Part shown: piece after piece, positions 12,895 through 58,459 of the stretch
How positions within the stretch are numbered: the stretch's first letter is position 1
Layout of the letters: every line of letters begins with the position of its first letter
Source: a virus
Taxonomy: Duplodnaviria; Heunggongvirae; Uroviricota; Caudoviricetes
Virus record (IMG/VR): IMGVR_UViG_2974696732_000001
Reading direction: 5' to 3' (one strand)
DNA: 64,000 nucleotides
Made by a program: the position numbers and the translations under genes
Notes under the pieces: model-generated
Told to the model about the DNA's origin: nothing
Databases searched by the model: none
The model's input: the letters and a program-made list of their open reading frames with translations, nothing else

Positions 12895-12912
12895 GCTGAT
12901 AAAGTAGTAAAT

Positions 12913-12999
12913 GTGGGTCGAAAGAGACATCGGTTATCTTTCAATAATGGTGAATACGCTCCGATAGGGGCTCTCCGATTCTCACCAACTTATCCACAC
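12913..12999 (+). ncRNA. noncanonical tRNA-like element (family A: GTGGGTCGAAAGAG..CGGTTATC..tail CTCACCAACTTATCCACAC)
   Basis: 5'/3' long-range complementarity TGTGG-GTCGAAAGAG with CTCTCCGA..CCACA. It does not fold as a tRNA. Sits directly upstream of tRNA-Gly. Confidence 0.3.
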
Positions 13000-13002
13000 T
13001 CT

Positions 13003-13073
13003 GCATCGGTAGTTTAATGGTAGAACGTCTGACTTCCAATCAGACAGCGCGGGTTCGATTCCCGCTCGGTGCT
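13003..13073 (+). tRNA. tRNA-Gly(TCC)
   Basis: Acceptor GCATCGG/TCGGTGC, anticodon loop CTTCCAA, T-arm GCGGGTTCGATTCCCGC. Confidence 0.8.
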
Positions 13074-13080
13074 CTCTCAT

Positions 13081-13154
13081 TCCCCCGTGGTCCGTGTGGC
13101 TGGCCACTGAGACTCTGAATCTCAGGTACGTAGGTTCGACTCCTGCCGGGGGAG
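13081..13154 (+). tRNA. tRNA-Gln(CTG)
   Basis: Acceptor TCCCCCG/CGGGGGA, anticodon loop CTCTGAA, T-arm GTAGGTTCGACTCCTGC. Confidence 0.7.
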
Positions 13155-13242
13155 CTGTGAAGGTGAGCAGGTCGCAATACTAGTTAGTGTAATCGCCCCC
13201 TGCGTAAATAAATGGGGTCGTTCATAATCTCCTTCACTTCAT

Positions 13243-13315
13243 GCATCCTTAGTGTAATGGTTTAGCACACGAGCTTCCAAACCTCTTAGAGTGGGTTCGA
13301 TTCCTACAGGATGTG
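13243..13315 (+). tRNA. tRNA (anticodon CCA, Trp?)
   Basis: Acceptor, D and T arms fold. The anticodon stem is weak, loop TTCCAAA. Confidence 0.5.
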
Positions 13316-13516
13316 CTTTGACGAATCTCGCCTTAGCAGATTGAAAAATGGTGGTCAGCATAAACCATTGAGTAAATCCGAGAGAACTATCAAAAGACAA
13401 AGGCCATGCTGAGGTCTGTCGAGTAGAGAAGTAGGGGATAAGGTCCCGAATGGCGTCAAAACCAATTAAAATAGCCCCCGGCAATGTCCGGGGGCACAAT
13501 CATATCTGGAGGAAAT

Positions 13517-13969
13517 GTGGGATACTACACTGACTTTACGCTAAGTGCTGAGGGTCGTGGCCCAATCTACGATAAGATGATGAAGCAGAAGGATAAGATT
13601 GTTTTCTCACAGGGAGACTACGATTTCATCCTCGGAGAGTGGCTTGACAGAGGCTACTCCCAGAACCTAAAGTGGTATGACTGGGAGAAGGACATGAAGC
13701 AGCTTTCCCGCGAATGGCCAAACGTTCTCTTTATCCTTGAGGGTGATGGAGAAGAGACCGGTGACCTCTGGAAGGCATGGTTCCGAAATGGAGAAATGCA
13801 CAAGCTAGAGGCCAAGATTGTCTTTGAGACAATCAAGCCTGACCTAGACAAGCACCTTCCATACGACAAAGACCTTGACAAGCGTCTGGGTGAACAGTAC
13901 AAGAAGGAACTTGCAGCCGAAATCGCCAAGCTACAGGCTCAGCTTGACGAACTAAGCCAGGAGGAGTAA
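13517..13969 (+). CDS. hypothetical protein
   Basis: ORF 13484.. trimmed to GTG 13517 with a GGAGGA RBS. The ATG at 13484 lies inside a hairpin. Confidence 0.45.
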   Translation: MGYYTDFTLSAEGRGPIYDKMMKQKDKIVFSQGDYDFILGEWLDRGYSQNLKWYDWEKDMKQLSREWPNVLFILEGDGEETGDLWKAWFRNGEMHKLEAKIVFETIKPDLDKHLPYDKDLDKRLGEQYKKELAAEIAKLQAQLDELSQEE

Positions 13970-14128
13970 AGTGGCTCTTACAGGCAACAAAGGACAGTGT
14001 TGGTTCCAAAGATGTTCTCGTAAGGCGACGACGACAATCAGGTACTACAACAAGTCAGTCGTTGTCTGTGATGGACACAAGAACCTTGATGGTGTAGGCT
14101 GTCCATCAAGTAGGCGGAGACCAAAGAG

Positions 14129-14157
14129 TTGACACTACTCAGAGGGTCTGCTAAGAT
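14129..14157 (+). promoter_or_regulatory. sigma70-like promoter TTGACA-N17-TAAGAT
   Basis: Upstream of the tRNA block at 14185. Confidence 0.5.
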
Positions 14158-14184
14158 TAAGTACAACGGCAGGGAAACCTGCTA

Positions 14185-14257
14185 TCAGGCACGGGGAAGA
14201 TGGTAATCCGTTGGCTTTGGAAGCCTAAGAAACTCGGTTCGATTCCGAGGTGCCTGA
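14185..14257 (+). tRNA. tRNA-like (TGG loop, imperfect stems; possible degenerate Pro copy)
   Basis: Acceptor TCAGGCA/TGCCTGA perfect, T-arm CTCGGTTCGATTCCGAG. The D and anticodon stems are imperfect. Confidence 0.45.
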
Positions 14258-14261
14258 CTTC

Positions 14262-14336
14262 CGGGATATAGCTCAGCTTGGTCAGAGCGCTGCATTTGGG
14301 ATGCAGAAGTCGCTGGTTCGAATCCAGTTATCCCGA
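14262..14336 (+). tRNA. tRNA-Pro(TGG)
   Basis: Acceptor CGGGATA/TATCCCG, anticodon stem CTGCA/TGCAG with loop TTTGGGA, T-loop TTCGAAT. Confidence 0.8.
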
Positions 14337-14338
14337 CT

Positions 14339-14416
14339 AGCCCCATAGGATAATGACTAATCCGCCTGTACGTGGAGTACAGGTAATACCGGTTAAATTC
14401 CGGACTAGGGGCTCCA
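14339..14416 (+). ncRNA. tRNA-like element with atypical T-loop (TTAAATT) and encoded CCA
   Basis: Acceptor-like AGCCCC/GGGGCT-CCA, hairpins CCTGTAC..GTACAGG and CCGG-TTAAATT-CCGG. Confidence 0.3.
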
Positions 14417-14421
14417 AACTT

Positions 14422-14485
14422 TTGGGTCGATTGAGACACGGTTATCTTACACAATGGATACTAGGTTCGATTCCTAGGGGTGCCG
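14422..14485 (+). ncRNA. noncanonical tRNA-like element (family member B)
   Basis: GGGTCGATTGAGACACGGTTATCTT plus a perfect T-arm CTAGGTTCGATTCCTAG, with no matching acceptor. A tail motif lies at 14546-14570. Confidence 0.3.
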
Positions 14486-14584
14486 TAAAAAGCGCTCTGT
14501 AAAGTCATCTCAGATGTGTGTGGTAGGATGACATAAGGTACTACACTCTCTCCGTTCTCGCCACTTACCTAAAGGAACTTTCTT

Positions 14585-15106
14585 ATGACGGTACTTCTAC
14601 GGACAATCCACGGAAGCCATCTGTATGGCCTTGCGCACGCAGGTTCAGACCGAGACATTTACGAAGTAATTGCCACGAAGCGAACCAAGCGAAAGCGCAA
14701 CATTAAGCAGACCATCGTGAATGGAGTTGACAAGACGGTCGTTGACCTCTCAACATTCATGCATATGGTTAATGAATGCGTACCTCAAGCACTTGAAGCG
14801 CTATGGACGCCGGTAGCGGAAGTTGATAAACTTCACGAATTCCGGACACAATATCGAGTGAATCGCGCCAAGATGAAGGAAGTATACATTCGAACCGCTC
14901 TGAACTTCGCCAAGAACGATGGAGTAAAGCAAAAGCGTCACGCTATTCGCCTGCTTCTCAATCTCGGTGCAGCTCTGGAGTATGGTAAATTCAATCCCCA
15001 GCTTTCCAATATGGACAAGTTCATCATAAACTCTTCCATGGGTGAAACTGGAGCATACGAGGATGTCTTCCTAGGCGTCCTTGATGAAGTACAAAAGTGG
15101 GTCTGA
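14585..15106 (+). CDS. putative minimal nucleotidyltransferase (Pol-beta superfamily-like)
   Basis: HGSHLYGLAHAGSDRDIY resembles the GS-x9-13-D-x-D NTase motif. Confidence 0.4.
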   Translation: MTVLLRTIHGSHLYGLAHAGSDRDIYEVIATKRTKRKRNIKQTIVNGVDKTVVDLSTFMHMVNECVPQALEALWTPVAEVDKLHEFRTQYRVNRAKMKEVYIRTALNFAKNDGVKQKRHAIRLLLNLGAALEYGKFNPQLSNMDKFIINSSMGETGAYEDVFLGVLDEVQKWV

Positions 15107-15200
15107 TGGCTCACGCCAATGGGGCGTATACCCTCACTCTGATAAAGTGTAGAAAGGTTAATCGGTTACATGTGGGTTCAATTCCCACCGTCCCAACTGG
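15097..15200 (+). ncRNA. noncanonical tRNA-like element (family member)
   Basis: GTGGGTCTGA..AATCGGTTACA..T-arm GTGGGTTCAATTCCCAC. Overlaps the stop of the upstream gene. Confidence 0.3.
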
Positions 15201-17330: not shown

Positions 17331-17404
17331 GCGCCAGTAGCATAACGGTTCAATGCAGTAGGCTTATATCCTACCGAGAGAAGGTTCAATTCCTTCCTGG
17401 CGTA
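17331..17404 (+). tRNA. tRNA-Ile(TAT)
   Basis: Acceptor GCGCCAG/CTGGCGT, anticodon stem GTAGG/CCTAC with loop CTTATAT, T-arm GAAGGTTCAATTCCTTC. Confidence 0.75.
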
Positions 17405-17407
17405 CTT

Positions 17408-17471
17408 GTGGGTCGAAGATGATTGTTTATCTTCAAATCAGCGTGTTGGGGGTTCGAATCCTCCCTGGGGA
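17408..17471 (+). ncRNA. noncanonical tRNA-like element (family member C; tail to about 17553)
   Basis: GTGGGTCGAAGAT, a 6-bp hairpin GAAGAT/ATCTTC and T-arm GGGGGTTCGAATCCTCC. No acceptor partner. Confidence 0.3.
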
Positions 17472-17579
17472 CTTTATTGTCCTCGGTAACTCAATGGCAG
17501 AGTAGCTGACATTGCCCGAATGGGCTAAACGATTGTCACGCCATATCCACATCATATAACTACTACTTAAGGACAAATA

Positions 17580-18250: not shown

Positions 18251-18336
18251 GGAGGCACGCATTGGTGGGCTTATCGGTCTTGAAAACCGTGATGGCGTAG
18301 TGATATGCCGTGGGAGTTCGAATCTCTCTGTCTCCG
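18251..18336 (+). tRNA. tRNA-Ser(TGA), type II
   Basis: Acceptor GGAGGCA/TGTCTCC, anticodon loop CTTGAAA, long variable arm, T-loop TTCGAAT. Confidence 0.65.
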
Positions 18337-18344
18337 CTCAAAGA

Positions 18345-18371
18345 CCCGGTACAAAAGTACCGGGCATTTTT
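18345..18371 (+). terminator. rho-independent terminator after tRNA-Ser
   Basis: CCCGGTAC-AAAA-GTACCGGG + CATTTTT. Confidence 0.65.
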
Positions 18372-19024: not shown

Positions 19025-20977
19025 ATGGCTAATTCAACACCCTTGCTAGGAGCAGGAAATGTCACCACAGCAAGCAATTCAAATGCGACGTCTGTAACCG
19101 TCAACAAGCCAGCTAATCTGGCAGACGGTCATTACATGTTTGCAGCTATCCTTCAAAGGAATGCAGCCGGTACGTGGACTGTTCCTTCCGGCTGGACAGA
19201 AGTTGGCGTAACTCAGCAAGATTACGTTGACTGCAAGGTGTACTACAAGGCAGTCCCATCAGCGGCAGCAGAGTCCGCTTCAAACTATACCTGGACGACC
19301 AACAAGACGGCTGAGAGAATTGTAGCAATCCTATGGCTACAAACTAGCGTCAACGCTTCTCCAATTGACGCGCTGGGCTCTGGAACGGCCACAGCACCTA
19401 ATCGTACAAGCATGAACTTTGCATCCGTGACGGCAGTAAGCTCTCACGCTACCCTGATGACTATTGGATACAGCACTATTGCAGGTGGCTCTACTGCACC
19501 AGTCGGCTCCACTCCAAGTGGAATGACGGAGATTGCCAACGTCAATATTGCCAACTCTGTTCCAAATGCATTGAATCTCAAGGTAAGTTATCAGGTTCTC
19601 AATGTAACAGGAGCTACTGGCACAAGGGCGACCACTTTCTCCCCGGCCGCTTCTGGTTCTGGTGGATTCACGTTCACTATCAATCCAGCAGGAGACCCAC
19701 CACCAACTGTCATTGCATTGAGACAAGGGCTATGTGACAGGGACAAGGTACGTGTCCTCAGCAGGACAAGCTTTGCGACATCTGTCCGCCTGGCTGTCTC
19801 ATTGTCCAGTGACATGTCTTCACCTGTGTATTCATCCCCAGTGACACCAGACAGTGATGGTTATTCTAAACTAACTGTCACTGGTTTGTCACCAGACACC
19901 AAGTATTACTTCGCCCTGGAGATGAATGGTGTCATCGACATGTCACTGACAGGACAGACAAGGACATTCCCTGTGACGGGCTCTTTCAGCTTTCTTGCTG
20001 CGTCATGTTCATTCACTGCATCCAATCATGCAGTATTCGACGCAATGCGAACTCGCGTTGGTCCAGATGGATTGCCTGCAAGATTCTTTGCTCATCTTGG
20101 AGACGTTCATTATGAACACGCTAGCTATCAGCCTCAGCCAATCGCTCCAAATGACCCGGCAGAGCATCGTACAAATTATGAAAATAGTTTGATGACGGCC
20201 AGACAGTCTGCTCTTTGGCGCAATATTCCTGTGAGCCATACGTACTCAGACAATGATTTCTGTGGTAGTAACTCTGATAGCACATATGCTGCTCGTCCAG
20301 CTATCATTGCTGTTAGGCATCAGGTCATGATTGACCCGCCTCTTCCTGACTCTCAGGGAAATGGTCTTTGGCGAAGTTGGGTGGTTGGTCGAGTTCGTTT
20401 TATACAAACGGACAGCCGAACCTACATGAGCGCAAAGGGGTCTACAGACAATAGCTCTAAGACTATGCTGGGGGCAGAACAGAAAGCATGGCTCAAGAGT
20501 CAGCTTCTACAACCAGAGATTCTTAAGGTGTGGCTACATGACCAAGCGTGGGGAGGAATAGCAACAAATCCCGGCACAAATGATACTTGGCAGGCATTCA
20601 ATACTGAAAGAGTAGAGATAGGAAACTTCATTTCTACTAACAAGGTGAAGGTGGTTTACATTCATGGCGACAGCCATCGCCTTTCTGCTGATAACGGAAT
20701 TCTTAACACAAGAGGGGGATTCCCAACAATCTCTTGTGCTCCTATGGACCAATCAGCTCAAGGAGGAGATTCGTCAGGAGAAGCAAATTCAGCAGGAGTT
20801 TATCCTGCCTATGGAATAACACAACAAGGTAATCACTACGGATGGTTTGATGTTAATGACAATGGGTATCAGCTCTCTTTGACATTCAAGGGATACGATT
20901 CTGGAGGAACGCAAAGAGTCACCATGACAGTTACTGTCAGTCCTGAAACATCTACAGGCTGGGGCTACCCTCTCTAA
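19025..20977 (+). CDS. PhoD-like metallophosphatase with N-terminal Ig/FN3-like region
   Basis: GDVHYE, SDNDF and HGDSHR metallophosphatase motifs, with an N-terminal beta-rich region of about 230 aa. Confidence 0.55.
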   Translation: MANSTPLLGAGNVTTASNSNATSVTVNKPANLADGHYMFAAILQRNAAGTWTVPSGWTEVGVTQQDYVDCKVYYKAVPSAAAESASNYTWTTNKTAERIVAILWLQTSVNASPIDALGSGTATAPNRTSMNFASVTAVSSHATLMTIGYSTIAGGSTAPVGSTPSGMTEIANVNIANSVPNALNLKVSYQVLNVTGATGTRATTFSPAASGSGGFTFTINPAGDPPPTVIALRQGLCDRDKVRVLSRTSFATSVRLAVSLSSDMSSPVYSSPVTPDSDGYSKLTVTGLSPDTKYYFALEMNGVIDMSLTGQTRTFPVTGSFSFLAASCSFTASNHAVFDAMRTRVGPDGLPARFFAHLGDVHYEHASYQPQPIAPNDPAEHRTNYENSLMTARQSALWRNIPVSHTYSDNDFCGSNSDSTYAARPAIIAVRHQVMIDPPLPDSQGNGLWRSWVVGRVRFIQTDSRTYMSAKGSTDNSSKTMLGAEQKAWLKSQLLQPEILKVWLHDQAWGGIATNPGTNDTWQAFNTERVEIGNFISTNKVKVVYIHGDSHRLSADNGILNTRGGFPTISCAPMDQSAQGGDSSGEANSAGVYPAYGITQQGNHYGWFDVNDNGYQLSLTFKGYDSGGTQRVTMTVTVSPETSTGWGYPL

Positions 20978-21095
20978 GTTGACAGGTCTCCTTGAAGCTG
21001 CTACCGTAGAATTACACTAGAAAATATAAAGAAAAAGATGTTGAAAAACATCTAGAATTGGTTAGAAACCGGATAGTAATTAATTAGAAGGAAGT

Positions 21096-21383
21096 ATGAG
21101 ACTCTTTGAACTCCATAGAGACATCGATGAATCTGGTGTCTCTGGAACAGGAAAGGTCACTCAGGGAGTACAGTTTGACGATGGTCAGGTCTGTATGCTA
21201 TGGTTGACCGCATTGAAGGGGTATCCTCAAGTCTATCCACACATCGAACGAGTCCTTGAGATTCATGGACATGATGGTAAGACTCGTGTAGTATGGCTTG
21301 ATGAGAAGCCCGGCAGGACTGTGAAGGTTGCTGGTAAGGAAGTTCCAGTCCACACAGTTGACAGGTTCTCTGAGAACCGCTAA
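21096..21383 (+). CDS. hypothetical protein
   Basis: 95-aa ORF. Confidence 0.45.
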   Translation: MRLFELHRDIDESGVSGTGKVTQGVQFDDGQVCMLWLTALKGYPQVYPHIERVLEIHGHDGKTRVVWLDEKPGRTVKVAGKEVPVHTVDRFSENR

Positions 21384-21464
21384 AGTAGAACGTAGAGCAG
21401 GTCGGCAAGCAGGTAAGTGAGGAACACAGGAGCTTGAGCCACAACCCCTCCGCCTAGCTCTCTT

Positions 21465-21540
21465 GCGTCTGTAGTATAGTCTGGTCCAATGCACCTGATT
21501 GTCAATCAGGAAATCGCGGGTTCAAATCCCGTCAGGCGCG
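21465..21540 (+). tRNA. tRNA-Asp(GTC)
   Basis: Anticodon stem CCTGA/TCAGG with loop TTGTCAA, T-arm GCGGGTTCAAATCCCGT. Confidence 0.75.
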
Positions 21541-21570
21541 CTCCCAACAATCTCTTAGGAGAACAAGTAA

Positions 21571-21801
21571 ATGAAGTGGTACCGAGTTGTCCTCCAGTCT
21601 TGGCGTGGAAACTACAGGTCTGCCTACCATGGTGACCAGCATGGAACGTCTCTTGCTGATGCCAAGCGTCGGGTAGAACTTTCTTTTCAGCGAAATGGCT
21701 GGCTGGACGATGAAGTCACGAAGTTCAGCATTGAGCTGGAATTCGATGAGAAGCGTACGAAGCACTTTGACGACAATGACCTTTGGGGGCCTTATATCTG
21801 A
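21571..21801 (+). CDS. hypothetical protein
   Basis: 76-aa ORF. Confidence 0.45.
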   Translation: MKWYRVVLQSWRGNYRSAYHGDQHGTSLADAKRRVELSFQRNGWLDDEVTKFSIELEFDEKRTKHFDDNDLWGPYI

Positions 21802-21965
21802 TGACCATCAGATTTTGTCCATCATGTATGCAAAACGTAGTTACTCTGGTGCAGAAGGCAAACTGTAAGCACTGTGGTACAGTAACTAAGCCAGTAGATG
21901 AGAAACTTCCTTTGCCTGATGAGGGTGAGAGGAACGACCTTACTGGCAAGCACAAAAAGAAGTAA
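21801..21965 (+). CDS. zinc-ribbon protein
   Basis: CPSC..CKHC; ATGA overlap. Confidence 0.45.
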   Translation: MTIRFCPSCMQNVVTLVQKANCKHCGTVTKPVDEKLPLPDEGERNDLTGKHKKK

Positions 21966-21980
21966 GCCCTTCGGGGTTAT

Positions 21981-22051
21981 CCCGGCGTGGTGTAATGGTA
22001 ACATACTGCGTTGTCAGCGCAATGTCGAGGGTTCGATTCCCTTCGTCGGGA
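21981..22051 (+). tRNA. tRNA-Asp(GTC), second copy
   Basis: Acceptor CCCGGCG/CGTCGGG, anticodon loop TTGTCAG, T-arm GAGGGTTCGATTCCCTT. Confidence 0.65.
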
Positions 22052-22055
22052 CAAA

Positions 22056-22167
22056 GTGGGTCGAAAGAGCAAGTCGGTTATCATCCCTTGAAATGAATGA
22101 ATAGTAGGTTCGACTCCTACATTGGCCAGGGCTAGGCCACCTCCGACTCTCACCAACATATCCACCA
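22056..22167 (+). ncRNA. noncanonical tRNA-like element (family member D with tail CTCTCACCAACATATCCACCA)
   Basis: GTGGGTCGAAAGAGCAAGTCGGTTATC and T-arm GTAGGTTCGACTCCTAC. The 3' ATTGGCC finds no 5' partner. Confidence 0.3.
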
Positions 22168-22170
22168 ATT

Positions 22171-22500
22171 ATGAACACAGAAGAAAGAATTGAGAAGCTA
22201 AAGGAACTCTGGAAAGACGGCTGGTATCTTGAGGATGCCATCGGAGAAATCGAAGACCATCTTTCTGAGGATGAGTTCAAGCCAAAGCTGGTAGACTCCG
22301 TAGAGGAGCATGAGTCACGATGGATGATTCACACTCTTGACATCGCTGAGATTGACGAAGGTGTATACGTTGGTGTACGCTGGGAGCGAGGTAAGACAGA
22401 GATGCAAGAGCACATCTTCGATGACAAGAACGTTTATCTTCTCGAAAGAGTCGAGAAGGTTGTCACTACAGTCGATTGGAATGACAAGAAAAAGCTATGA
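22171..22500 (+). CDS. hypothetical protein
   Basis: 109-aa acidic ORF. Confidence 0.45.
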   Translation: MNTEERIEKLKELWKDGWYLEDAIGEIEDHLSEDEFKPKLVDSVEEHESRWMIHTLDIAEIDEGVYVGVRWERGKTEMQEHIFDDKNVYLLERVEKVVTTVDWNDKKKL

Positions 22501-22919
22501 GAAACTGGCTCGGTCATGAAATCGAGGTTGGCGCAGTAGTCTTTCGCGGCGGAAAGCAGGGCACATCGTCCTCTTTCCGCGTCGGCGTTGTAGACGACAT
22601 TGACGAACAGAAGCAGAATGCCCGTGTTGTCTGGCATTGGGTTCCAAGTAATAGAACTATTTGGGATAAGGACCAGTATCAGTATTCACACATGGACGAC
22701 AATCGCTACTACGTCTCTGGACCTGCAAAGGCCAGCACTCAACGAACTCGCTACCCTATCAATGACCTTGCGAGGCTTGATGACGGTATGCTAGAGTACC
22801 TACAGAAGCGATACCAGCTCATCGAGGCTGCTATCCACTACAAGATTCGTGAAGAAGACTTTGCTCAATTCGAGCGAGACTTTGATATGGGACTAGTTCC
22901 CGAAATTCCTATGCCTTAG
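22497..22919 (+). CDS. hypothetical protein
   Basis: 140-aa ORF. Confidence 0.45.
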   Translation: MRNWLGHEIEVGAVVFRGGKQGTSSSFRVGVVDDIDEQKQNARVVWHWVPSNRTIWDKDQYQYSHMDDNRYYVSGPAKASTQRTRYPINDLARLDDGMLEYLQKRYQLIEAAIHYKIREEDFAQFERDFDMGLVPEIPMP

Positions 22920-22936
22920 AAAGGGCCGGTAGTAAA

Positions 22937-24580
22937 ATGTCTAATGCACTTAACAACGCAGCTAAGGGTCTCAACAAGACTCCTCAGTCTGTCAAGGCCA
23001 AGGCAGGACAGGTCAAGAACAACGCTGGTGGATTCGTCTTCCAGGTTTCTGACCAGGCTCGCCTTGAGCGATTCCTTATCCTTGGTGTTGATGGTGGAAC
23101 CTATTACGTAAAGGAAGCCGACCACGCGCGTTCCAACGTACAGTTCCTCAATGACATGATTGAGCGAGACGAAGCCTCTGTACTGAACACAATCGTTGAT
23201 GTATCTGTCAATGGTCGTGCGTACAAGCAGTCTCCAGTCCTGTTCGCACTAGCCTCTGTCATTGTCCACGGACGTGACAAGCAGTCCGTCAAGGCTGTAT
23301 TTAATCGTGTTGTTCGTACTGGTACACACCTCTACGAGGTTGTGAACTACCTGAACACCATGGGTGGATGGGGTCGAGCAAAGCGTGAAATCGTTGCTAG
23401 TTGGTTCGAGCGCGATGCCGATAAGCTTGCTTACCAGATGGTCAAGTACCGTTCTCGTGAGTTTGCTGGCAACCGTTGGACCATGCGTGACGTAATGCGC
23501 AAGGCTCACCCACAGAACATGAACACTTCCGCTGCTGACTTTGCCCTCGGCAAGGAGCACGATGCTGTTGATGACCTTCGGGTTATTGAGGGTTTCAAGC
23601 TCATGCAGAAAGCTCAGTCTGTTGAAGACGTGCACAATGTTCTTCGGGCGTACGAGATGCTTCCTTGGGAGACTATCCCAACTCAGTTCCTCAAGGATTT
23701 GAGTGTCTGGAAGCGAATCTTCGCCAACGGTCAGCTTCGTGGTCAGGCTCTTGTCCGAAACATCACCCGTCTCGCACGGCTTGGTGCTTTCCAGGACATG
23801 CGTTTTGCTGCTGCTTATGCAGGACAGCTCACGAATCAGGAGATGATTGCGCAGACTCGTCTGCACCCAATCAACTTCCTGAACGCGACTGTTGTGTATA
23901 ACGATGGTCAGCTAAAGCGTGCCAAGGACCGCTGGGGCTACGAGAGTGAGCAGCGCGTAAAGGATTGGACGACTGAAAGTGTCATTGTCGATGCTCTCGA
24001 TGAGGGTTTCCACAAGGCATTCAAGACCGTCCAGCCTGCCGGTAAGCGAACGATGCTTGCTATTGATGTGTCAGGTTCCATGAGTGCAAAGGCTAACGGT
24101 CTCGACCTTAGCTGTGCTCAGGTTTCTGCTGCAATGGCAATGACCATCGCTCGTACCGAGCCAGCTCACATCATCCGTGGATTCACGTCTGATGGCTATG
24201 GTTGGAGGAACAGTGGTCTGACTGACCTCGGCATCTCCGCTCGTACAAACCTTGCTACGGCAATGCGTAATGTACAGCGAAGCAACTGGGGCGGCACAGA
24301 TTGTTCCCTCCCAATGCGTTGGGCTCTTGAGAACAAGGTAGAGGTTGACACCTTCGTGGTTATCACTGATAACGACACGTGGGCTGGCGACGTTCACCCA
24401 TTCCAGGCGCTCAAGGAGTACCGTAAGAAGACCGGAATCGACGCTCGCATGGCAGTTCTGGGAGTTCAGGCAACTGAATTCACCATCGCTGACCCAAGCG
24501 ACCGTGGAATGATGGACTTCGTAGGGTTTGACAGCAATGCACCTCGTGTGCTCGCTGACTTCTCCGCAGGTCGCATCTGA
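22937..24580 (+). CDS. rsr: Ro60/Rsr-like ribonucleoprotein (TROVE domain + vWA)
   Basis: 547 aa with an N-terminal TROVE-like region and a C-terminal vWA MIDAS motif AIDVSGSMS, matching the Ro60 architecture. Confidence 0.65.
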   Translation: MSNALNNAAKGLNKTPQSVKAKAGQVKNNAGGFVFQVSDQARLERFLILGVDGGTYYVKEADHARSNVQFLNDMIERDEASVLNTIVDVSVNGRAYKQSPVLFALASVIVHGRDKQSVKAVFNRVVRTGTHLYEVVNYLNTMGGWGRAKREIVASWFERDADKLAYQMVKYRSREFAGNRWTMRDVMRKAHPQNMNTSAADFALGKEHDAVDDLRVIEGFKLMQKAQSVEDVHNVLRAYEMLPWETIPTQFLKDLSVWKRIFANGQLRGQALVRNITRLARLGAFQDMRFAAAYAGQLTNQEMIAQTRLHPINFLNATVVYNDGQLKRAKDRWGYESEQRVKDWTTESVIVDALDEGFHKAFKTVQPAGKRTMLAIDVSGSMSAKANGLDLSCAQVSAAMAMTIARTEPAHIIRGFTSDGYGWRNSGLTDLGISARTNLATAMRNVQRSNWGGTDCSLPMRWALENKVEVDTFVVITDNDTWAGDVHPFQALKEYRKKTGIDARMAVLGVQATEFTIADPSDRGMMDFVGFDSNAPRVLADFSAGRI

Positions 24581-24614
24581 CAACAACCCCTCTTCGGAGG
24601 GGTTTTGTTGTTTA
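24581..24614 (+). terminator. rho-independent terminator after the Ro60-like gene
   Basis: CAACAACCCCTC-TTCG-GAGGGGTTTTGTTG + TTTAT. Confidence 0.65.
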
Positions 24615-24766
24615 TGATACGATTAATAGATGATATCTAAAGAAGAAAGAAAACAACTAAAGCTAGCAAGGTCAAAAGCAGAACTAGTAAGAACCGTGGC
24701 AGCACTATTTCAAATGGTGATGGCTACCGCAACTCTCTGCATCCTAGTCTACGTAAACTTCATGCG

Positions 24767-24795
24767 TTGACAGGACGCTCGGCAGGGTGTAGAGT
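24767..24795 (+). promoter_or_regulatory. promoter TTGACA-N17-TAGAGT
   Basis: Consensus family member. The HNH gene ATG follows 8 nt after the -10, so the mRNA is near-leaderless. Confidence 0.55.
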
Positions 24796-24802
24796 CTTAC
24801 TC

Positions 24803-25183
24803 ATGGGAACGAAGATTTCTATCGAAGAACTGTACGAACGTGACAAGGGTATGTGCGGCATCTGTGGAAATCGCGTGACTCGCAAGCAGCTCATCAAGGG
24901 CCTTGCAAATCGTGACCACATCGTTCCAGCCTCTCTAGGCGGAACGAATCACCGCAGCAATCTACGTCTTGCTCACTATTGGTGCAATATTCGACGTGGC
25001 AATGACCTTCCTAATAATGGACAGCCTTCTCATGATGAAAAGATGCTGACGGCATTTGAGAATCAAGAGGGTTTGTGTCCTCTGTGTGACGAAGCCCTTG
25101 CTCTTGATAGGAAGGCAGAGGGTTTTATTCGCCAGAAGGATTTGGCTCATCGAGTCTGCATCCGTCGTGATAGAGGGATGTAA
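24803..25183 (+). CDS. HNH endonuclease
   Basis: DHIVPASLGGTNHRSNLRLAHYWCN. ATG 24803 lies just downstream of the promoter -10 at 24790. Confidence 0.7.
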   Translation: MGTKISIEELYERDKGMCGICGNRVTRKQLIKGLANRDHIVPASLGGTNHRSNLRLAHYWCNIRRGNDLPNNGQPSHDEKMLTAFENQEGLCPLCDEALALDRKAEGFIRQKDLAHRVCIRRDRGM

Positions 25184-25368
25184 TGAATAATGATGAGCCA
25201 GGCGTAACGATTCTCAGTTTGCTGAGAATGCTGAAACGTAAACGCAAAAATCGGCCGGTAGTCGAGATGTCTACTTGTGGCCATTGTAAGACCAAGTACG
25301 ATATCCACAAAGGACATATGTGTCCTTACATCAAGAAACTCTACGAGGGGTTGAAAGATAATGGCTGA
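25183..25368 (+). CDS. small Cys/His-rich protein
   Basis: CGHC..HKGHMCP. Confidence 0.4.
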   Translation: MNNDEPGVTILSLLRMLKRKRKNRPVVEMSTCGHCKTKYDIHKGHMCPYIKKLYEGLKDNG

Positions 25369-25576
25369 CTACGTAACTCGTCACTACACTTTCAAGGGCA
25401 GCAACAAGTTGGCTGATGAGATTGCCTATCTTGCTGTGAAGAATCACTGTCGAGTCTCCAACCGAACCACTACAGGCGTGTTCACAAAGGAGCACCGCTT
25501 TGAGGTTTTTGGTGACGTGACTGGCATGGACCGTTTCGAAACTGAAATGGCTGATGCCAAGCGGAGGCTTTCGTGA
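25361..25576 (+). CDS. hypothetical protein
   Basis: 71-aa ORF. Confidence 0.4.
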   Translation: MADYVTRHYTFKGSNKLADEIAYLAVKNHCRVSNRTTTGVFTKEHRFEVFGDVTGMDRFETEMADAKRRLS

Positions 25577-25965
25577 GCAATAGTTTTTACCATGCTCAAA
25601 GTTCAGCCCGGAAATGGGGAGGTGTGCCAGAGGACTACATTGCCATTCATGAATGGATTGATGGGTCCAAGGCACACTTTGGCGATGCTCGACACAGAGC
25701 CCTACGTCATCACACAGAGGGTTGTTGGGAGGCAGAGCGAGTTTTCGGTCTGACCATCACAGTAAAAAAGAAAAACGGCATGGGTGAAGTACGTGTTCCA
25801 GTTCGTGAAATTGCTGAACAGCACGTATTTGAAGACCTTGGGCACATTCCCAGTCTTGCTGATTGGCTTGAGAACATGACCCTCAAGACATGGATGGGCG
25901 GTAAGGTAAAGAAATTCGTAGGACGCGAGGACGTTCTTAACACTGTCAAGAAAGAAGCAAAGTGA
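25573..25965 (+). CDS. hypothetical protein
   Basis: 130-aa ORF. Confidence 0.45.
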   Translation: MSNSFYHAQSSARKWGGVPEDYIAIHEWIDGSKAHFGDARHRALRHHTEGCWEAERVFGLTITVKKKNGMGEVRVPVREIAEQHVFEDLGHIPSLADWLENMTLKTWMGGKVKKFVGREDVLNTVKKEAK

Positions 25966-27023: not shown

Positions 27024-27048
27024 CAGACAAGTCTAGCCACGCTAGACT
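27020..27048 (+). promoter_or_regulatory. promoter TTGACA-N17-TAGACT
   Basis: Upstream of tRNA-Glu(CTC). Confidence 0.45.
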
Positions 27049-27089
27049 AGCACTACAGCGCAGGACGGAGCGCTAACAAATCCGTTCAA

Positions 27090-27160
27090 GCTCCTATAGT
27101 CTAAGGGTAGGATACAAGATTCTCAATCTTGTGGTCGGAGTTCAATTCTCCGTAGGAGTA
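27090..27160 (+). tRNA. tRNA-Glu(CTC)
   Basis: Anticodon stem CAAGA/TCTTG with loop TTCTCAA, T-arm CGGAGTTCAATTCTCCG. Confidence 0.75.
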
Positions 27161-45149: not shown

Positions 45150-46055
45150 ATGGCTCAGCTTCTCATCCTCCGGGGCGTTCCTGGATGTGGAAAGTCCACT
45201 TTCGCTCACCAGTGGCTCAAGGAAGGTGAGCGGCGTGCTCGTGTAAACCGTGACGACATCCGTATGCAGTTCTTCGGTAAGGAGACTGGTGTGGATGAAG
45301 ACATGGTTACCAAGATTGAGCACCAGCAGGTAGACATGCTTCTCAAGTCTGGATACTCTGTGGTTGTCGATGACACCAACATCAGGTTCCAGTACATCAC
45401 AGCTTTCGTTAAGATTGCTGCGAAGCATGGCGTGCCTGTTGCAGTAAAGCAGTTCGATGTGGACCTCAAGACTGCCATTGAGCGCAATGCACACCGTGCT
45501 TCTCAGGGTGGTCGTGATGTCCCTACGCACGTCATCGAGAGGATGCACAAGTCTCTCAAGTCTTCTGGTCAGTACACTCGGAAGCACATCGAAGATGCTT
45601 GGGGAACTTCTCAGTCTGTGCAGCCTTACGTTCGGCCAGTAGGCAAGCGAAAGGTTTACCTCTTTGACATTGATGGCACTCTTGCCCAGATGTCTGACAG
45701 GTCTCCTTTTGAGTGGAACAAGGTTGGCAATGACGACCCCCGTCGTCAGGTTGTTCTGACTGCTCAGGCGCTTGCTGAGGCGGGCTACGAGATTGTTGTA
45801 ATGAGCGGTCGAGACTCTGTCTGCCGTGATGAGACAATTGCGTGGCTGGAGTTCTATGACATCCCCTTTGTTGACCTCTTCATGAGGGCAGAGGGTGACA
45901 TGCGTAAGGACAACATCGTTAAGCAGGAGCTGTTTGACAAGCACATTCGTGACTTCTACGATGTTGTGGCCGTCTTTGACGACCGGCAGCAAGTGGTTGA
46001 CATGTGGCGTGCGATGGGCGTAGACTGCTTCCAGGTCGCGCCTGGAGATTTCTGA
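45150..46055 (+). CDS. pnk: polynucleotide 5'-kinase/3'-phosphatase (T4 Pnk-like)
   Basis: P-loop GVPGCGKST kinase plus a HAD phosphatase DIDGTLA..SGR. Start trimmed to ATG 45150, downstream of the promoter at 45093-45121. Confidence 0.8.
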   Translation: MAQLLILRGVPGCGKSTFAHQWLKEGERRARVNRDDIRMQFFGKETGVDEDMVTKIEHQQVDMLLKSGYSVVVDDTNIRFQYITAFVKIAAKHGVPVAVKQFDVDLKTAIERNAHRASQGGRDVPTHVIERMHKSLKSSGQYTRKHIEDAWGTSQSVQPYVRPVGKRKVYLFDIDGTLAQMSDRSPFEWNKVGNDDPRRQVVLTAQALAEAGYEIVVMSGRDSVCRDETIAWLEFYDIPFVDLFMRAEGDMRKDNIVKQELFDKHIRDFYDVVAVFDDRQQVVDMWRAMGVDCFQVAPGDF

Positions 46056-56577: not shown

Positions 56578-56583
56578 GCCTCC

Positions 56584-56651
56584 AGGCCGGGTATACTAGG
56601 CACATCTAGGGAACTATGGGGTTCGAATCCCTACCGGCCGCAATAAATCCC
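56584..56651 (+). ncRNA. armless tRNA-like element (acceptor + one hairpin + T-arm)
   Basis: GGCCGG/CCGGCC stem, CTAG..CTAG hairpin and T-arm TGGGGTTCGAATCCCTA. 32 nt precede the T-stem, too few for a tRNA. Confidence 0.3.
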
Positions 56652-56668
56652 CTTGAGGGGAGGATAGG

Positions 56669-56917
56669 TTGTACGTTGAGAACGACACAGAAGTATCGCA
56701 CTGCATCAAAGAATTGACGAGAGAGATATGGGTGACCATTAAAATGGTCTTGAGGTCCGAGGCTACAGTAGAGCAAATTTACGATGCAGCTTCTAGGGCC
56801 AAGTTTCTGCGTCTCTATATTGATAGATACCGTGTCAAGGAATTCACTTCCCTCACAGAAACCGAGCTATGGCTAGCTCAGGAAGTAGCAGATGCAGTAG
56901 AAGACTTGATTGATTGA
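56669..56917 (+). CDS. hypothetical protein
   Basis: 82-aa ORF with a TTG start. Confidence 0.35.
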   Translation: MYVENDTEVSHCIKELTREIWVTIKMVLRSEATVEQIYDAASRAKFLRLYIDRYRVKEFTSLTETELWLAQEVADAVEDLID

Positions 56918-56948
56918 CTTTTAACTCATCTGTGATTACAATTCAGGT

Positions 56949-57350
56949 ATGTCCAGGATATCAACAGCTCTAGTCAAATTGTTCAAGCACCCTCTAGTGG
57001 TTGTAGAGGTGATTATTGCTGTCGGTTTGCTGGTCTCAGGATTGTACACAGTAGGCCCATGGTATGTTACTAACGCAACGACTCCTATCGGTCAGGCGAT
57101 TGACTCCACACTCGTCAGAATGGCAATAGGAGCTTTTTATACACTCAGCGCTTTGACTTCACTATGGGGAGGATTTAAGGATTGGGACGAAAGCAGGTCA
57201 ATTGGTCTGTTCATGATGTTCCTCTCCTACTCATTCATCACTATTCTTAGATGGATGGCGATTGGCTTTGTTCCTCTGACTTGGGTATTCAGCCTTACCT
57301 TGGCCCTTATTGTGGCATTCCTATACTTTAGGATAAGGTTGCTGAAATAA
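56949..57350 (+). CDS. membrane protein (4 TM helices)
   Basis: 133-aa hydrophobic ORF. Confidence 0.45.
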   Translation: MSRISTALVKLFKHPLVVVEVIIAVGLLVSGLYTVGPWYVTNATTPIGQAIDSTLVRMAIGAFYTLSALTSLWGGFKDWDESRSIGLFMMFLSYSFITILRWMAIGFVPLTWVFSLTLALIVAFLYFRIRLLK

Positions 57351-57656
57351 ATGCCCGAGATTACTACGGCTTGGATAGCCTTGATTGGTACAGTGCTGGG
57401 TGGGGTTGGACTAAAGTTTGTCGAACACTGGCTCAGCCGTAGCAAGGTTCGGGATGACACAGCCGCTCAGCTCAGAAATGAATTGAGAACTGAAATTCAG
57501 GGACTCAAGCAAGAGCTGAACAATGTTGAAACCGACCTAGACAAGTGGCGTGGAAAGTATTACGAATTGATGGACAACTTTATCAAAGTCAAGAGTGAGC
57601 TTGAGACGGCCATGCGGCAGCTACAAAATCAACAGAACAACAACACAAACCCCTAG
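57351..57656 (+). CDS. membrane-anchored coiled-coil protein
   Basis: N-terminal TM helix plus a coiled coil. Confidence 0.45.
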   Translation: MPEITTAWIALIGTVLGGVGLKFVEHWLSRSKVRDDTAAQLRNELRTEIQGLKQELNNVETDLDKWRGKYYELMDNFIKVKSELETAMRQLQNQQNNNTNP

Positions 57657-57673
57657 CCGATGCTAGGGGTTCT
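57650..57673 (+). terminator. terminator
   Basis: CCCCTAGC-CGAT-GCTAGGGG + TTCT. Confidence 0.55.
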
Positions 57674-57690
57674 GTGCTAGAGTAAGGAGC

Positions 57691-57888
57691 ATGACGATGG
57701 AAGCAGTGATGGAACGTCCTCTTCGTAAGACTGAGGACAGATGTGACAGATGCAACGCTCAGGCGTTTGTGATTGCAGAGAAGGGTGACATGGCCCTGCT
57801 ATTCTGTGGACATCATGGCAAGCAGTACAAGCAAGCACTTGAGATGCAGGGCTGGGGACTGCTTGACTTCACCGACGAGATTGGCTAG
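57691..57888 (+). CDS. small zinc-binding protein
   Basis: CDRC..CGHH. Confidence 0.4.
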   Translation: MTMEAVMERPLRKTEDRCDRCNAQAFVIAEKGDMALLFCGHHGKQYKQALEMQGWGLLDFTDEIG

Positions 57889-57897
57889 AGTAGAGAC

Positions 57898-58131
57898 ATG
57901 GACACAGAGAAGCGGTTCTTCGTAGGAGACGTTGTTCGTATCACTGCCTCTGAAAGTGGGCGTAGTGAATGGATTGACTTCCTTGCCATGGTTGAACCGT
58001 GGCCGGAAGGTGAGGAGCAGTGGGTGGATGGGATGCTGCACAACTGGCTTCTTCCTCTTTATCGGCGTCCTGACGGGTTTGAGTACAGCCCGTTCATGTG
58101 GCCCACTCGCAATCTCGAAAAGGTCAGCTAG
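57898..58131 (+). CDS. hypothetical protein
   Basis: 77-aa ORF. Confidence 0.4.
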   Translation: MDTEKRFFVGDVVRITASESGRSEWIDFLAMVEPWPEGEEQWVDGMLHNWLLPLYRRPDGFEYSPFMWPTRNLEKVS

Positions 58132-58141
58132 TCTGACCCAT

Positions 58142-58221
58142 TCCCCAGTTGCTCTGTTTGGTAGGGGCCGCCTGACTTTGAATCAGGACTAGCGACGTAG
58201 GTTCGAATCCTGCCTGGGGAG
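58142..58221 (+). tRNA. tRNA-Gln(TTG)
   Basis: Acceptor TCCCCAG/CTGGGGA perfect, anticodon stem CCTGA/TCAGG with loop CTTTGAA, 9-nt variable loop. Confidence 0.6.
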
Positions 58222-58222
58222 C

Positions 58223-58459
58223 ATGTTTAATGAAGAGAACAACATCGAGTACGACAACGTAGACGTTTCGGCTGAGAACGGTATGCTTGTTCTCATCTAC
58301 AAGAAGGGCAGTAAAGCTGTCTTTCGTACTCGTATCGACGGGCCCAATCGAGGTAAGCTCATCTGGGCAATGTGGAAGAAGCACAGGGAGGCCAAGAAGT
58401 GGCGGATTATTCCTTCACTGACCACCGAGGGCGACGGGTCAACAAAGGAGACCGAGTAA
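58223..58459 (+). CDS. hypothetical protein
   Basis: 78-aa ORF after tRNA-Gln. Confidence 0.4.
   Translation: MFNEENNIEYDNVDVSAENGMLVLIYKKGSKAVFRTRIDGPNRGKLIWAMWKKHREAKKWRIIPSLTTEGDGSTKETE

Follow-up and report, generated by a model that had tools for sequence, protein, structure and literature searches.

Why should a phage carry tRNA genes for all 20 amino acids, and why should these lie dispersed among small open reading frames (ORFs) over 45 kb? The question is raised by a tRNA array in IMG/VR virus record IMGVR_UViG_2974696732_000001, of which a 64,000-nt stretch (the window) was analysed, and in which a first-pass annotation, made from the letters alone, had read by hand about 43 tRNA genes from ~12900 to 58230. 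Over the 13 kb compared, window positions 27000–40000 showed 100% identity with positions 85707–98707 of the 133,486-bp genome of Streptomyces phage Paradiddles (MF347637.1/NC_042010.1), and further window regions matched MF347637.1 at the expected offsets (record coordinate minus 58707 equals window coordinate). The window is the rightward-transcribed, non-structural arm of Paradiddles (cluster BE1, Samistivirus), rich in tRNA and transfer-messenger RNA (tmRNA) genes, with a G+C content of 0.49, and the region is common to 123 phage records, all with Streptomyces hosts. The main job of the tRNA set, at a probability which we put at about 0.65, would be to provide decoders for the A/U-ending codons that fill this 49% G+C phage and are rare in its ~72% G+C host.

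The array as described is already published, and is real but not new. Cluster BE1 phages were reported to have 43–48 tRNAs, one tmRNA, all 20 amino acids and a G+C of ~50%, ~20 points under that of the host, in a genome announcement covering Paradiddles and seven relatives, which offered two functions for the tRNAs, either countering tRNA-degrading defences or optimising codon usage (Hughes et al. 2018, PMC5764925). About 42 tRNAs were counted in Streptomyces phages, with 16–17 of them outside the main cluster (Morgado & Vicente 2019, PMC6409571), and the paper on phage Coruscant gave the same reading of the tRNA set (PMC7650747). The window agrees with the BE1 description in having 42 tRNAs found by ARAGORN plus two others, one tmRNA, all 20 amino acids and a G+C of 0.49. 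Thus, a set this large and its dispersed layout, which had been called rare and unusual, are so among phages generally, but not for cluster BE, of which both are a published conserved hallmark (PMC5764925, PMC6409571, PMC7650747). The GenBank annotation of MF347637.1 lists 45 tRNAs and one tmRNA in this stretch; a 46th tRNA (Thr-CGT) is on the other strand at record positions 14347–14418, beyond the window. Neither Hughes et al. (2018) nor the GenBank record has the Y-like RNAs or a 134-nt tRNA-shaped RNA, and the number of promoter motifs, the 3′ ends encoded only as far as C74 and the missing reader for UUA are likewise absent from both.

ARAGORN, run over the whole window, returned 42 tRNA genes and one tmRNA gene, all on the + strand between 13003 and 58222, in agreement with the number and span first proposed. 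Rfam at gathering thresholds returned the tmRNA (103.8 bits) and 38 tRNA matches, comprising 34 shared with ARAGORN, two extra genes annotated in GenBank and two unannotated tRNA-like elements. The eight ARAGORN tRNAs with no Rfam gathering match were four long-arm Ser/Tyr genes, Gln-CTG, Leu-TAG at 28081, Asn-GTT at 30771 and Cys; long-arm tRNAs such as these Ser/Tyr genes score poorly with the general tRNA model. The accepted total was 44 tRNA genes with 35 distinct anticodons for all 20 amino acids, which supports the near-complete decoding set that had been claimed. Nearly all the hand-read anticodons were correct; the tmRNA (39577–39843) had been overlooked, and so had Lys-TTT (33993) and additional genes for Pro-TGG (14186), Ala-GGC (41700) and His-GTG. 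The genes, with the evidence for each, are as follows.

13003–13074, +, tRNA-Gly (TCC); ARAGORN, Rfam 70.1 bits, GenBank
13081–13155, +, tRNA-Gln (CTG), atypical; ARAGORN, GenBank, no Rfam tRNA at gathering (E-value scan only tRNA-Sec, 22.3 bits)
13243–13316, +, tRNA-Trp (CCA); ARAGORN, Rfam 49.6 bits
14186–14258, +, tRNA-Pro (TGG) copy 1; ARAGORN, Rfam 48.8 bits
14262–14337, +, tRNA-Pro (TGG) copy 2, 62% identical to copy 1; ARAGORN, Rfam 69.4 bits
17331–17405, +, tRNA-Ile (TAT), reads AUA; ARAGORN, Rfam 65.3 bits
17925–18010, +, tRNA-Ser (GGA), long variable arm; ARAGORN, GenBank
18251–18337, +, tRNA-Ser (TGA), long variable arm; ARAGORN, GenBank
21465–21541, +, tRNA-Asp (GTC) copy 1; ARAGORN, Rfam 64.9 bits
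21981–22052, +, tRNA-Asp (GTC) copy 2, 66% identical; ARAGORN, Rfam 57.8 bits
27090–27161, +, tRNA-Glu (CTC); ARAGORN, Rfam 64.3 bits
27415–27489, +, tRNA-Glu (TTC); ARAGORN, Rfam 60.1 bits
27748–27819, +, tRNA-Val (TAC); ARAGORN, Rfam 65.6 bits
28081–28156, +, tRNA-Leu (TAG), short-arm (type I), copy 1; ARAGORN, GenBank
28295–28369, +, tRNA-Leu (TAG), short-arm (type I), copy 2; ARAGORN, Rfam 55.2 bits
28693–28764, +, tRNA-Gly (GCC); ARAGORN, Rfam 59.7 bits
28905–28978, +, tRNA-Arg (TCT); ARAGORN, Rfam 61.2 bits
29600–29672, +, tRNA-Ala (TGC); ARAGORN, Rfam 58.2 bits
29838–29912, +, tRNA-Lys (CTT) copy 1; ARAGORN, Rfam 62 bits
30771–30848, +, tRNA-Asn (GTT) copy 1, atypical; ARAGORN, GenBank, no Rfam gathering match
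31493–31565, +, tRNA-Asn (GTT) copy 2; ARAGORN, Rfam 69.4 bits
33231–33303, +, tRNA-Arg (CCT); ARAGORN, Rfam 63.8 bits
33349–33424, +, tRNA-Ile (GAT); ARAGORN, Rfam 67.1 bits
33497–33569, +, tRNA-Ala (GGC) copy 1; ARAGORN, Rfam 65.9 bits
33793–33866, +, tRNA-Lys (CTT) copy 2; ARAGORN, Rfam 59.9 bits
33993–34068, +, tRNA-Lys (TTT); ARAGORN, Rfam 56.9 bits
34403–34476, +, tRNA-Arg (TCG); ARAGORN, Rfam 57.9 bits
35577–35649, +, tRNA-Met (CAT), elongator-like (G1:U72); ARAGORN, Rfam 62.8 bits
35650–35721, +, tRNA-Met (CAT), initiator-like (1:72 mismatch and GGG in the anticodon stem, by hand reading); ARAGORN, Rfam 40.7 bits
36351–36433, +, tRNA-Tyr (GTA), long-arm; ARAGORN, GenBank
36489–36560, +, tRNA-Tyr (GTA), short-arm, low-scoring; Rfam 32 bits, GenBank, no ARAGORN call
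36661–36734, +, tRNA-His (GTG), low-scoring, sole gene with an encoded CCA; Rfam 40 bits, GenBank
36759–36834, +, tRNA-His (GTG); ARAGORN, Rfam 57.4 bits
37016–37088, +, tRNA-Phe (GAA); ARAGORN, Rfam 54.8 bits
37682–37757, +, tRNA-Cys (GCA); ARAGORN, GenBank
37773–37848, +, tRNA-Thr (TGT); ARAGORN, Rfam 61.6 bits
38451–38522, +, tRNA-Thr (GGT); ARAGORN, Rfam 45 bits
38653–38726, +, tRNA-Arg (ACG); ARAGORN, Rfam 48.9 bits
39577–39843, +, tmRNA, tag ANSKFAFALAA*, G3:U70; ARAGORN, Rfam RF00023 103.8 bits, GenBank
41700–41774, +, tRNA-Ala (GGC) copy 2, 56% identical; ARAGORN, Rfam 41.1 bits
46680–46762, +, tRNA-Leu (GAG), long-arm; ARAGORN, Rfam 56.4 bits
47200–47271, +, tRNA-Val (GAC); ARAGORN, Rfam 64.6 bits
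47701–47777, +, tRNA-Leu (CAA), short-arm (type I); ARAGORN, Rfam 52.4 bits
48011–48094, +, tRNA-Ser (GCT), long-arm; ARAGORN, GenBank
58142–58222, +, tRNA-Gln (TTG); ARAGORN, Rfam 39.9 bits

The RF00023 score of the tmRNA was far over the cutoff of 47 bits, and its acceptor stem (GGGGAUG/CAUCUCC) gives the G3:U70 pair. Thirty-six of the 44 tRNA genes reached the Rfam RF00005 gathering score (at least 29 bits). It could be argued that most of the calls are decayed, non-functional tRNA-like sequences, since eight ARAGORN calls had no Rfam gathering match, two GenBank calls scored just 32–40 bits, one GenBank “tRNA-Ser” appears not to be a tRNA and several tRNA-like fragments lie in the gaps. 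Against this, 34 calls were backed by both ARAGORN and Rfam, mostly at 45–70 bits, tRNA order and anticodons were kept across genera in relatives whose Ro60 protein (encoded within the array) is only 54–80% identical, and the tRNAs were more conserved than neighbouring coding sequences (CDSs). Such decay is largely refuted and has next to no chance of accounting for the array; neither a low count nor a majority of pseudogenes, the refutation foreseen in the first-pass annotation, was borne out. Because of the scores and the conserved gene order and anticodons, the 44 predicted tRNA genes are credible, being neither chance matches nor pseudogenes. Same-anticodon duplicates shared just 56–67% identity and are therefore probably old, distinct isodecoders.

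To compare anticodon supply with codon usage, as the first-pass annotation had proposed, 15 ORFs chosen by G+C content at third codon positions (GC3) from 40 kb of an unannotated plasmid of Streptomyces sp. NBC_01340 were taken as a proxy for the host. GC3 was 0.53 for the window ORFs and 0.48 for ten structural genes, against 0.88 for the proxy. Seventeen codons that were rare in the proxy (each <3 per 1000, 2.8% in total) made up 21–22% of phage codons, and 16 of the 17 had a phage tRNA reader. Four-codon boxes were served by anticodons with G and U at position 34 (G34 and U34), save Pro (UGG twice) and Arg CGN (ACG and UCG). Anticodons with C34 were limited to Trp, Met, UUG, AGG and the Gln, Glu and Lys boxes, and the phage set held none of the C34 tRNAs of four-codon boxes that serve the G+C-rich host. 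These results indicated a decoder set close to the minimal complete one, and one that matches the phage's own codon usage almost exactly.

By simple wobble, only UUA, CCU and CCC were left without a phage reader, and UUA was the sole sense codon unreadable by the phage tRNAs under any wobble rule. Among the 1337 Leu codons of ORFs of 60 aa or more, 12 were TTA, as were two of the 728 when only ORFs of 150 aa or more were counted, and TTA did not occur in 6300 codons of structural genes; CTA, TTG and CTT were common in the phage despite this near-absence. In Streptomyces, UUA is decoded through the bldA tRNA, which is under developmental control. Coruscant, which has a tRNA-Leu(TAA), used TTA 2.1–2.6 times per 1000 codons vs 0.3–0.7 in Paradiddles. 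Likewise, in three loci with a tRNA-Leu(TAA) (L016, L018 and L046), TTA was used 2.5–3.2 times per 1000 codons vs a median of 0.9 in BE1-like loci with none (one-sided Mann-Whitney p=0.03, the loci being not phylogenetically independent).

The duplicated genes gave a further hint. The tRNAs of the queuosine family (Asp, Asn, His and Tyr) were all doubled, with copies 59–66% identical (post hoc hypergeometric P=0.0024), and the NAU share of the corresponding phage codons was 36–47%. Streptomycetes lack queuosine and read NAU codons inefficiently (PMC9262613). The doubling fits this NAU use in hosts lacking queuosine, and the extra G34 decoders may offset poor NAU reading.

Two other features of the decoders were seen. 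The UAU anticodon of tRNA-Ile (17331–17405), kept in BE relatives, makes AUA readable without a lysidine-modified CAU tRNA (TilS route). The long variable arm was missing from three tRNA-Leu genes (both TAG copies and CAA) and also from one tRNA-Tyr (36489–36560). Type I tRNA-Leu can be charged by Streptomyces leucyl-tRNA synthetase (PMC6614811), with which the predicted short-arm tRNA-Leu genes fit as a match to host biology.

Several points weigh against codon supply as the main job. The host proxy consists of plasmid ORFs from a Streptomyces strain other than S. griseus ATCC 10137; a search of genome contigs with the phage WhiB found no relative. The duplicated Asp, Asn, His, Tyr, Ala-GGC and Lys-CTT tRNAs also read host-common codons, which codon compensation alone does not require. 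CCU and CCC, at 20 per 1000 codons, have no phage reader by simple wobble and need either four-way reading by tRNA-Pro(UGG) or host tRNAs. In loci L017, L019 and L020 TTA was used 1.9–4.2 times per 1000 codons with no TAA tRNA detected in the 21 kb examined, and the correlation of TTA with tRNA-Leu(TAA) is clade-structured and not phylogenetically independent. Finally, expression, processing and charging of the tRNAs are predictions.

The low G+C and the tRNA set could also be a legacy of host range, coming from an ancestral host of lower G+C and serving many hosts of differing codon preference. “A recent adaptation to Streptomyces” was suggested by the Coruscant authors (PMC7650747), and metagenomic relatives with the layout of Ro60 within a tRNA array reach a GC3 of 0.28–0.37 with heavy TTA use. 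All 123 records with the region are from Streptomyces hosts, however, and the avoidance of TTA, the type I tRNA-Leu and the FALAA-type tmRNA tag look like tuning to Streptomyces. A legacy of this kind is thus very unlikely to be the main explanation, and supply of decoders for A/U-ending codons remains the preferred one.

The decoding set had also been called host-independent, which did not hold. None of the 42 ARAGORN tRNA genes encoded CCA, and neither an aminoacyl-tRNA synthetase nor SmpB for the tmRNA was annotated in GenBank, indicating dependence on host RNase P/Z, CCA-adding enzyme, synthetases and modification enzymes. In 41 of the 42 genes and in the tmRNA, C74 was encoded and C75–A76 were not (e.g. 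13073–13076 and 39842–39845). Such C74-only ends hint at a particular route of 3′-end maturation. Genes for an Rv2179c-like exoribonuclease and an RlaP-family nucleotidyltransferase lie near these RNAs.

The annotated RNAs formed 24 blocks, split by annotated CDSs mostly of 46–150 aa, so the small ORFs said to be interleaved with the tRNAs are real. Thirty-nine of the 45 annotated tRNAs lay within 13003–38726, and the other six were scattered as far as 58222. Forty-three IMG/VR loci were retrieved via the Ro60 protein. Those whose Ro60 shared 43% identity or more all had 10–29 tRNAs within 10 kb and on the same strand as Ro60, and most loci with a more distant Ro60 (34–38% identity) had none. 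Between Paradiddles and four relatives, tRNAs were 83–89% identical and CDSs 75–83%, and only 8–14 of 24 small ORFs were detectable at the DNA level; the tRNAs are therefore the more lasting part of the array, among small ORFs that come and go. The dispersed layout is inherited, not accidental, its order being shared with Coruscant, a phage of another genus, and with metagenomic relatives.

Each block had been thought to have its own promoter and terminator. Exact TTGACA-N16-18-TANNNT sequences occurred 40 times on the + strand (from 11359 to 62941) and never on the − strand, against a mean of 0.75 and a maximum of four in dinucleotide shuffles, giving a density of promoter-like sites of about one per 1.3 kb of the arm. 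A TTGACA-like site (at least five of six bases) lay within 150 nt upstream of 13 of the 24 RNA blocks, so own promoters are plausible for these and not for the rest. The predicted transcription start fell at, or a few bases before, the 5′ end of tRNA-Cys (37682), tRNA-Leu (46680) and the Y-like RNA at 12911. Own terminators were not supported: counts of terminator-like hairpins (26, 18 and 24) were at most marginally above the ~15 expected from shuffles, and a hairpin followed the RNA for only about two blocks (18345–18364 and 29969–29991). With so few terminators, most tRNAs would be cut from longer transcripts which also carry ORFs.

An ATG or GTG abutting the tRNA 3′ end opened an ORF of 50–110 codons in six of 44 cases (background 3.8%, binomial p=0.006), namely at 27162 (GTG after Glu-CTC, an 82-codon ORF), 34069, 37089 (ATG after Phe), 46763 (GTG after Leu-GAG), 47778 and 58223 (ATG after Gln-TTG); the ORFs at 34069 and 47778 are unannotated. 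This arrangement suggests that excision of a tRNA could create a leaderless mRNA for the abutting ORF.

Five genes predicted to act on RNA were found inside the array. The RNA-repair and Ro60 genes among them had also been overlooked at first.

14585–15106, +, RlaP-family (RNA-repair-associated, pol-beta-fold) nucleotidyltransferase; Pfam PF10127, 26.1 bits vs a cutoff of 23
22937–24580, +, Ro60 ortholog (TROVE and vWA_Ro60); Pfam, PDB 2NVO (D. radiodurans Rsr) E=4e-99
39009–39566, +, Rv2179c-like 3′–5′ exoribonuclease, directly upstream of the tmRNA; Pfam PF16473, 29.1 bits
43337–44434, +, T4 Rnl1-type RNA ligase; Pfam PF09511, PDB 2C5U E=4e-11, residues 41–329
45150–46055, +, T4 Pnkp-type polynucleotide kinase-phosphatase; Pfam HAD_PNKP and AAA_33, PDB 1LTQ E=2e-44, residues 2–301 vs 2–301

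Homologs of Pnkp and Rnl1, the T4-type repair pair, thus occur in one genome. In T4, Pnkp and Rnl1 mend tRNA-Lys cleaved by the anticodon nuclease PrrC. The Paradiddles homologs, the RlaP-family nucleotidyltransferase, the exoribonuclease, the tmRNA and Ro60 with its roughly four Y-like RNAs make up a kit which probably keeps the RNA pool working under host attack.

These genes bear on counter-defence as a rival main function: phage tRNAs would stand in for host tRNAs that anticodon nucleases or other tRNA-targeting defence or toxin systems cleave, or that disappear as the phage degrades host RNA, and the adjoining Pnkp/Rnl1, RlaP and Ro60/Y-RNA genes would repair or triage damaged RNAs. The Pnkp and Rnl1 homologs, the RlaP-family nucleotidyltransferase and the Ro60 ortholog speak for it, as do the 56–67% identical duplicates, which are distinct isodecoders and not dosage copies, and the inclusion of tRNAs for host-abundant codons. 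Phage tRNAs are known to evade tRNA-targeting defences (PMC10264068, PMC11464382, PMC11555353), and counter-defence was one of the two hypotheses of the original authors (PMC5764925). No particular countered nuclease was identified in the window, however, and the tight codon fit (G34 and U34, no C34 in four-codon boxes, UUA omitted and avoided) is not predicted by defence evasion alone. As the main function, counter-defence is therefore rather unlikely. The presence of Pnkp and Rnl1 in the array supports it as a second function compatible with codon supply; the two are not exclusive, and codon supply is ranked as the main one.

Around Ro60, a family of four elements was found which resemble bacterial Y RNAs.

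22054–22166, +, Y-RNA-like (YrlA-type), 0.8 kb upstream of Ro60; GUCGAAAG motif, T arm and acceptor-position stem-loop; covariance model R1 was built on it (116 bits by construction)
17406–17551, +, Y-RNA-like, immediately following tRNA-Ile, with a T arm, an acceptor-like stem-loop and a D arm; R1 32.6 bits, E=7e-5, and fold
12911–12998, +, short Y-RNA-like, no T arm; R1 58.6 bits, E=1e-11
14420–14514, +, weaker Y-RNA-like paralog, T arm at 14461–14477; R1 26.4 bits, E=0.003, and shared TGGGTCGA..GGTTATC motif

A scan for T-arm hairpins had given a dozen outside annotated tRNAs (11 on the + strand; a couple are probably due to chance). All four elements shared a stem made by their two ends and carrying a CGAA motif, a 5′ TGGGTCGA(A/T)..GGTTATC motif and a 3′ AUCCAC strand. 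In three of them the motif GNCGAAN0-1G, as GUCGAAAG or GUCGAAG, lay at 12917, 17412 and 22060 on the 5′ strand of the stem formed by the ends; this CGAA motif has been described for bacterial and phage Y RNAs (PMC4201824; PMC12135203). The closing helix of 22054–22166 covaried (UA:7, CG:2, AU:1), as did its T arm and acceptor-position stem, and the same position was filled in at least 20 related loci. R1 recovered the other three copies of the window (E=1e-11, 7e-5 and 3e-3) and, in phages with a Ro60 of only 43–63% identity, two to six copies immediately upstream of that gene. A promoter-like TTGACA-N17-TAAAGT site (12877–12905) ended 6–8 nt before the RNA at 12911–12998.

The elements differed in how much of a tRNA-like domain they hold: 17406–17551 has the T arm, acceptor-like stem-loop and D arm, 22054–22166 the first two, and 12911–12998 none, resembling YrlB. 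The Rfam YrlA model (RF02553) matched 17422–17536 at 34.8 bits (E=5.9e-5), under its gathering score of 69, and an Rfam scan of 20900–25700 around Ro60 at E≤1 gave no YrlA match and none for 22054–22166. They are therefore called Y-RNA-like and not YrlA members, and form a putative Ro60-partner family. The GenBank “tRNA-Ser (tga)” at 22059–22128 was found by neither ARAGORN nor Rfam tRNA (E≤1), and is best read as the 5′ part of the Y-like RNA at 22054–22166.

Two further tRNA-shaped elements were unannotated.

42364–42497, +, 134-nt tRNA-shaped RNA with acceptor, D and T arms and a ~72-nt structured insertion replacing the anticodon loop; Rfam tRNA 32.8 bits with a 72-nt insert
15120–15196, +, tRNA-like element directly after the RlaP-type nucleotidyltransferase gene; Rfam tRNA 30.8 bits

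The 134-nt RNA lies upstream of the Pnkp/Rnl1 genes and was seen also in loci L053–L059, L005 and L007. RNAalifold on seven versions predicted 36 pairs, and compensatory double changes occurred in 17 of these. The insertion is a three-helix module with an invariant GUGCAC ... CUAGUAGCGCUGCUAG-GAUGA core, which also reads as a TTGACA-N17-TAGGAT promoter, so that an RNA motif, a promoter or both are possible. An intron-containing tRNA was rejected: the ARAGORN intron search found nothing, and neither U33 nor an anticodon was conserved over the seven versions. A mini-tmRNA was rejected as well; there is no G3:U70, and the tags lack the kind of ending that degradation tags have. The candidate tag frame (seven codons, from GCA to UAGUAG) was open in four sequence types, and the LilMartin version meets an earlier in-frame TGA. 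In NootNoot and Mildred21, a second, different element of ~130 nt follows the 134-nt RNA, annotated as “tRNA-OTHER” in Mildred21.

The element at 15120–15196 occurred in 79 phage records. Its hairpin loop reads CUGAUAA, and its stem is changed in a compensatory way in Coruscant (CACU/AGUG to CUCC/GGAG). ARAGORN at low stringency gave it as an undetermined call, which was not accepted as a tRNA; nor was a low-stringency “tRNA-His(atg)” at ~27932–28009. The latter is one of several tRNA-like fragments in + strand gaps (14339–14415, 27932–28009, 28525–28541, 28787–28890 and 56586–56640), which include a pseudo-cloverleaf with a 5-nt “anticodon” loop, minihelices of acceptor and T arm, and a trio of T-arm hairpins within a single 140-nt gap. 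Such fragments might be remnants of tRNAs that have decayed, or signals for processing.

A wider view of the array may be offered tentatively, with somewhat less than even confidence: it could be a tRNA-punctuated expression system that also encodes Ro60-partner Y-like RNAs and a new class of ~134-nt RNA, with 3′ ends processed to C74 and completed by a nucleotidyltransferase, and with tRNA excision releasing leaderless mRNAs.

Among known systems, the BE1 Samistivirus phages (Paradiddles, NootNoot, Samisti12, Jay2Jay, Mildred21 and others) are no different for the array as stated, the window being Paradiddles itself. Coruscant, of another genus (Coruscantvirus; PMC7650747), has 41 tRNAs, 48% G+C and a syntenic order (Gly-Gln-Trp-Pro-Pro-nucleotidyltransferase-FtsK-Ile ... 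Ro60 ... Glu-Glu-Leu). It differs from Paradiddles in its tRNA-Leu(TAA), a 3–7-fold higher use of TTA and the lack of a Val tRNA; no tmRNA was found by ARAGORN in the 50 kb of Coruscant examined. In IMG/VR relatives (L023–L025, L029–L032 and L045), tmRNA tags varied and all ended in (F/Y)ALAA, e.g. ANSNFALAA and ANTQTAFALAA, and a tRNA of L031, labelled Pyl by ARAGORN, bears the amber-reading anticodon CTA.

T4 is like Paradiddles in its phage-borne tRNAs and in Pnkp and Rnl1, of which full-length homologs are present here. It has eight tRNAs in one tight cluster, whereas here 44 are spread over 45 kb among ORFs, with a tmRNA and Ro60 in addition, and the T4 pathway has a cognate anticodon nuclease (PrrC), with none known for Paradiddles. 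The T4 tRNA cluster also holds stable tRNA-like RNAs. Mycobacteriophages of cluster C (Bxz1-type) are likewise actinobacteriophages with tens of tRNAs, and also carry a tmRNA. Mycobacteriophage tRNAs are mostly clustered (55–97%), vs 16–17 of ~42 outside the cluster in Streptomyces phages (PMC6409571).

The Ro60/YrlA modules of bacteria (Chen et al. 2014, PMC4201824) and of Thermus phage phiLo (PMC12135203) share with the window a Ro60 gene, upstream small RNAs on the same strand, an end stem with the CGAA motif, a T arm and an acceptor-like stem-loop. The Paradiddles RNAs are unlike them in scoring under the YrlA gathering threshold (34.8 vs 69), in having four copies over 10 kb between tRNAs and in one being annotated as a tRNA; by sequence they are putative Ro60 partners.

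From these data a course of events may be proposed. The many sigma-70-like promoters would give short transcripts joining tRNAs and small ORFs, from which host RNase P and 3′ processing would excise the tRNAs. CCA ends would be added post-transcriptionally, since the 42 ARAGORN genes encode none, and host synthetases would charge the products. The phage tRNAs would then supply decoders for A/U-ending codons, with UUA left uncovered and avoided, and the embedded RNA-maintenance kit would probably keep the RNA pool working under host attack.

Taken by itself, the array adds nothing to Hughes et al. (2018), the first-pass annotation having correctly found anew a phage tRNA set that ranks among the largest; the remaining interest lies in the unannotated RNAs and the UUA gap. 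The practical gain is in annotation: a “tRNA-Ser” of GenBank probably belongs to a Y-like RNA, and annotation is lacking for at least five conserved structured RNAs, namely three more Y-like genes, the tRNA-shaped RNA of 134 nt and the tRNA-like element after the RlaP gene. For the biology of these phages, the system is a natural test bed for why phages carry tRNAs, combining a 23-point gap in G+C between phage and host, a decoder set fitted to phage codons and omitting exactly the bldA codon, and a T4-type RNA-repair kit with a Ro60/Y-RNA module in the same arm.

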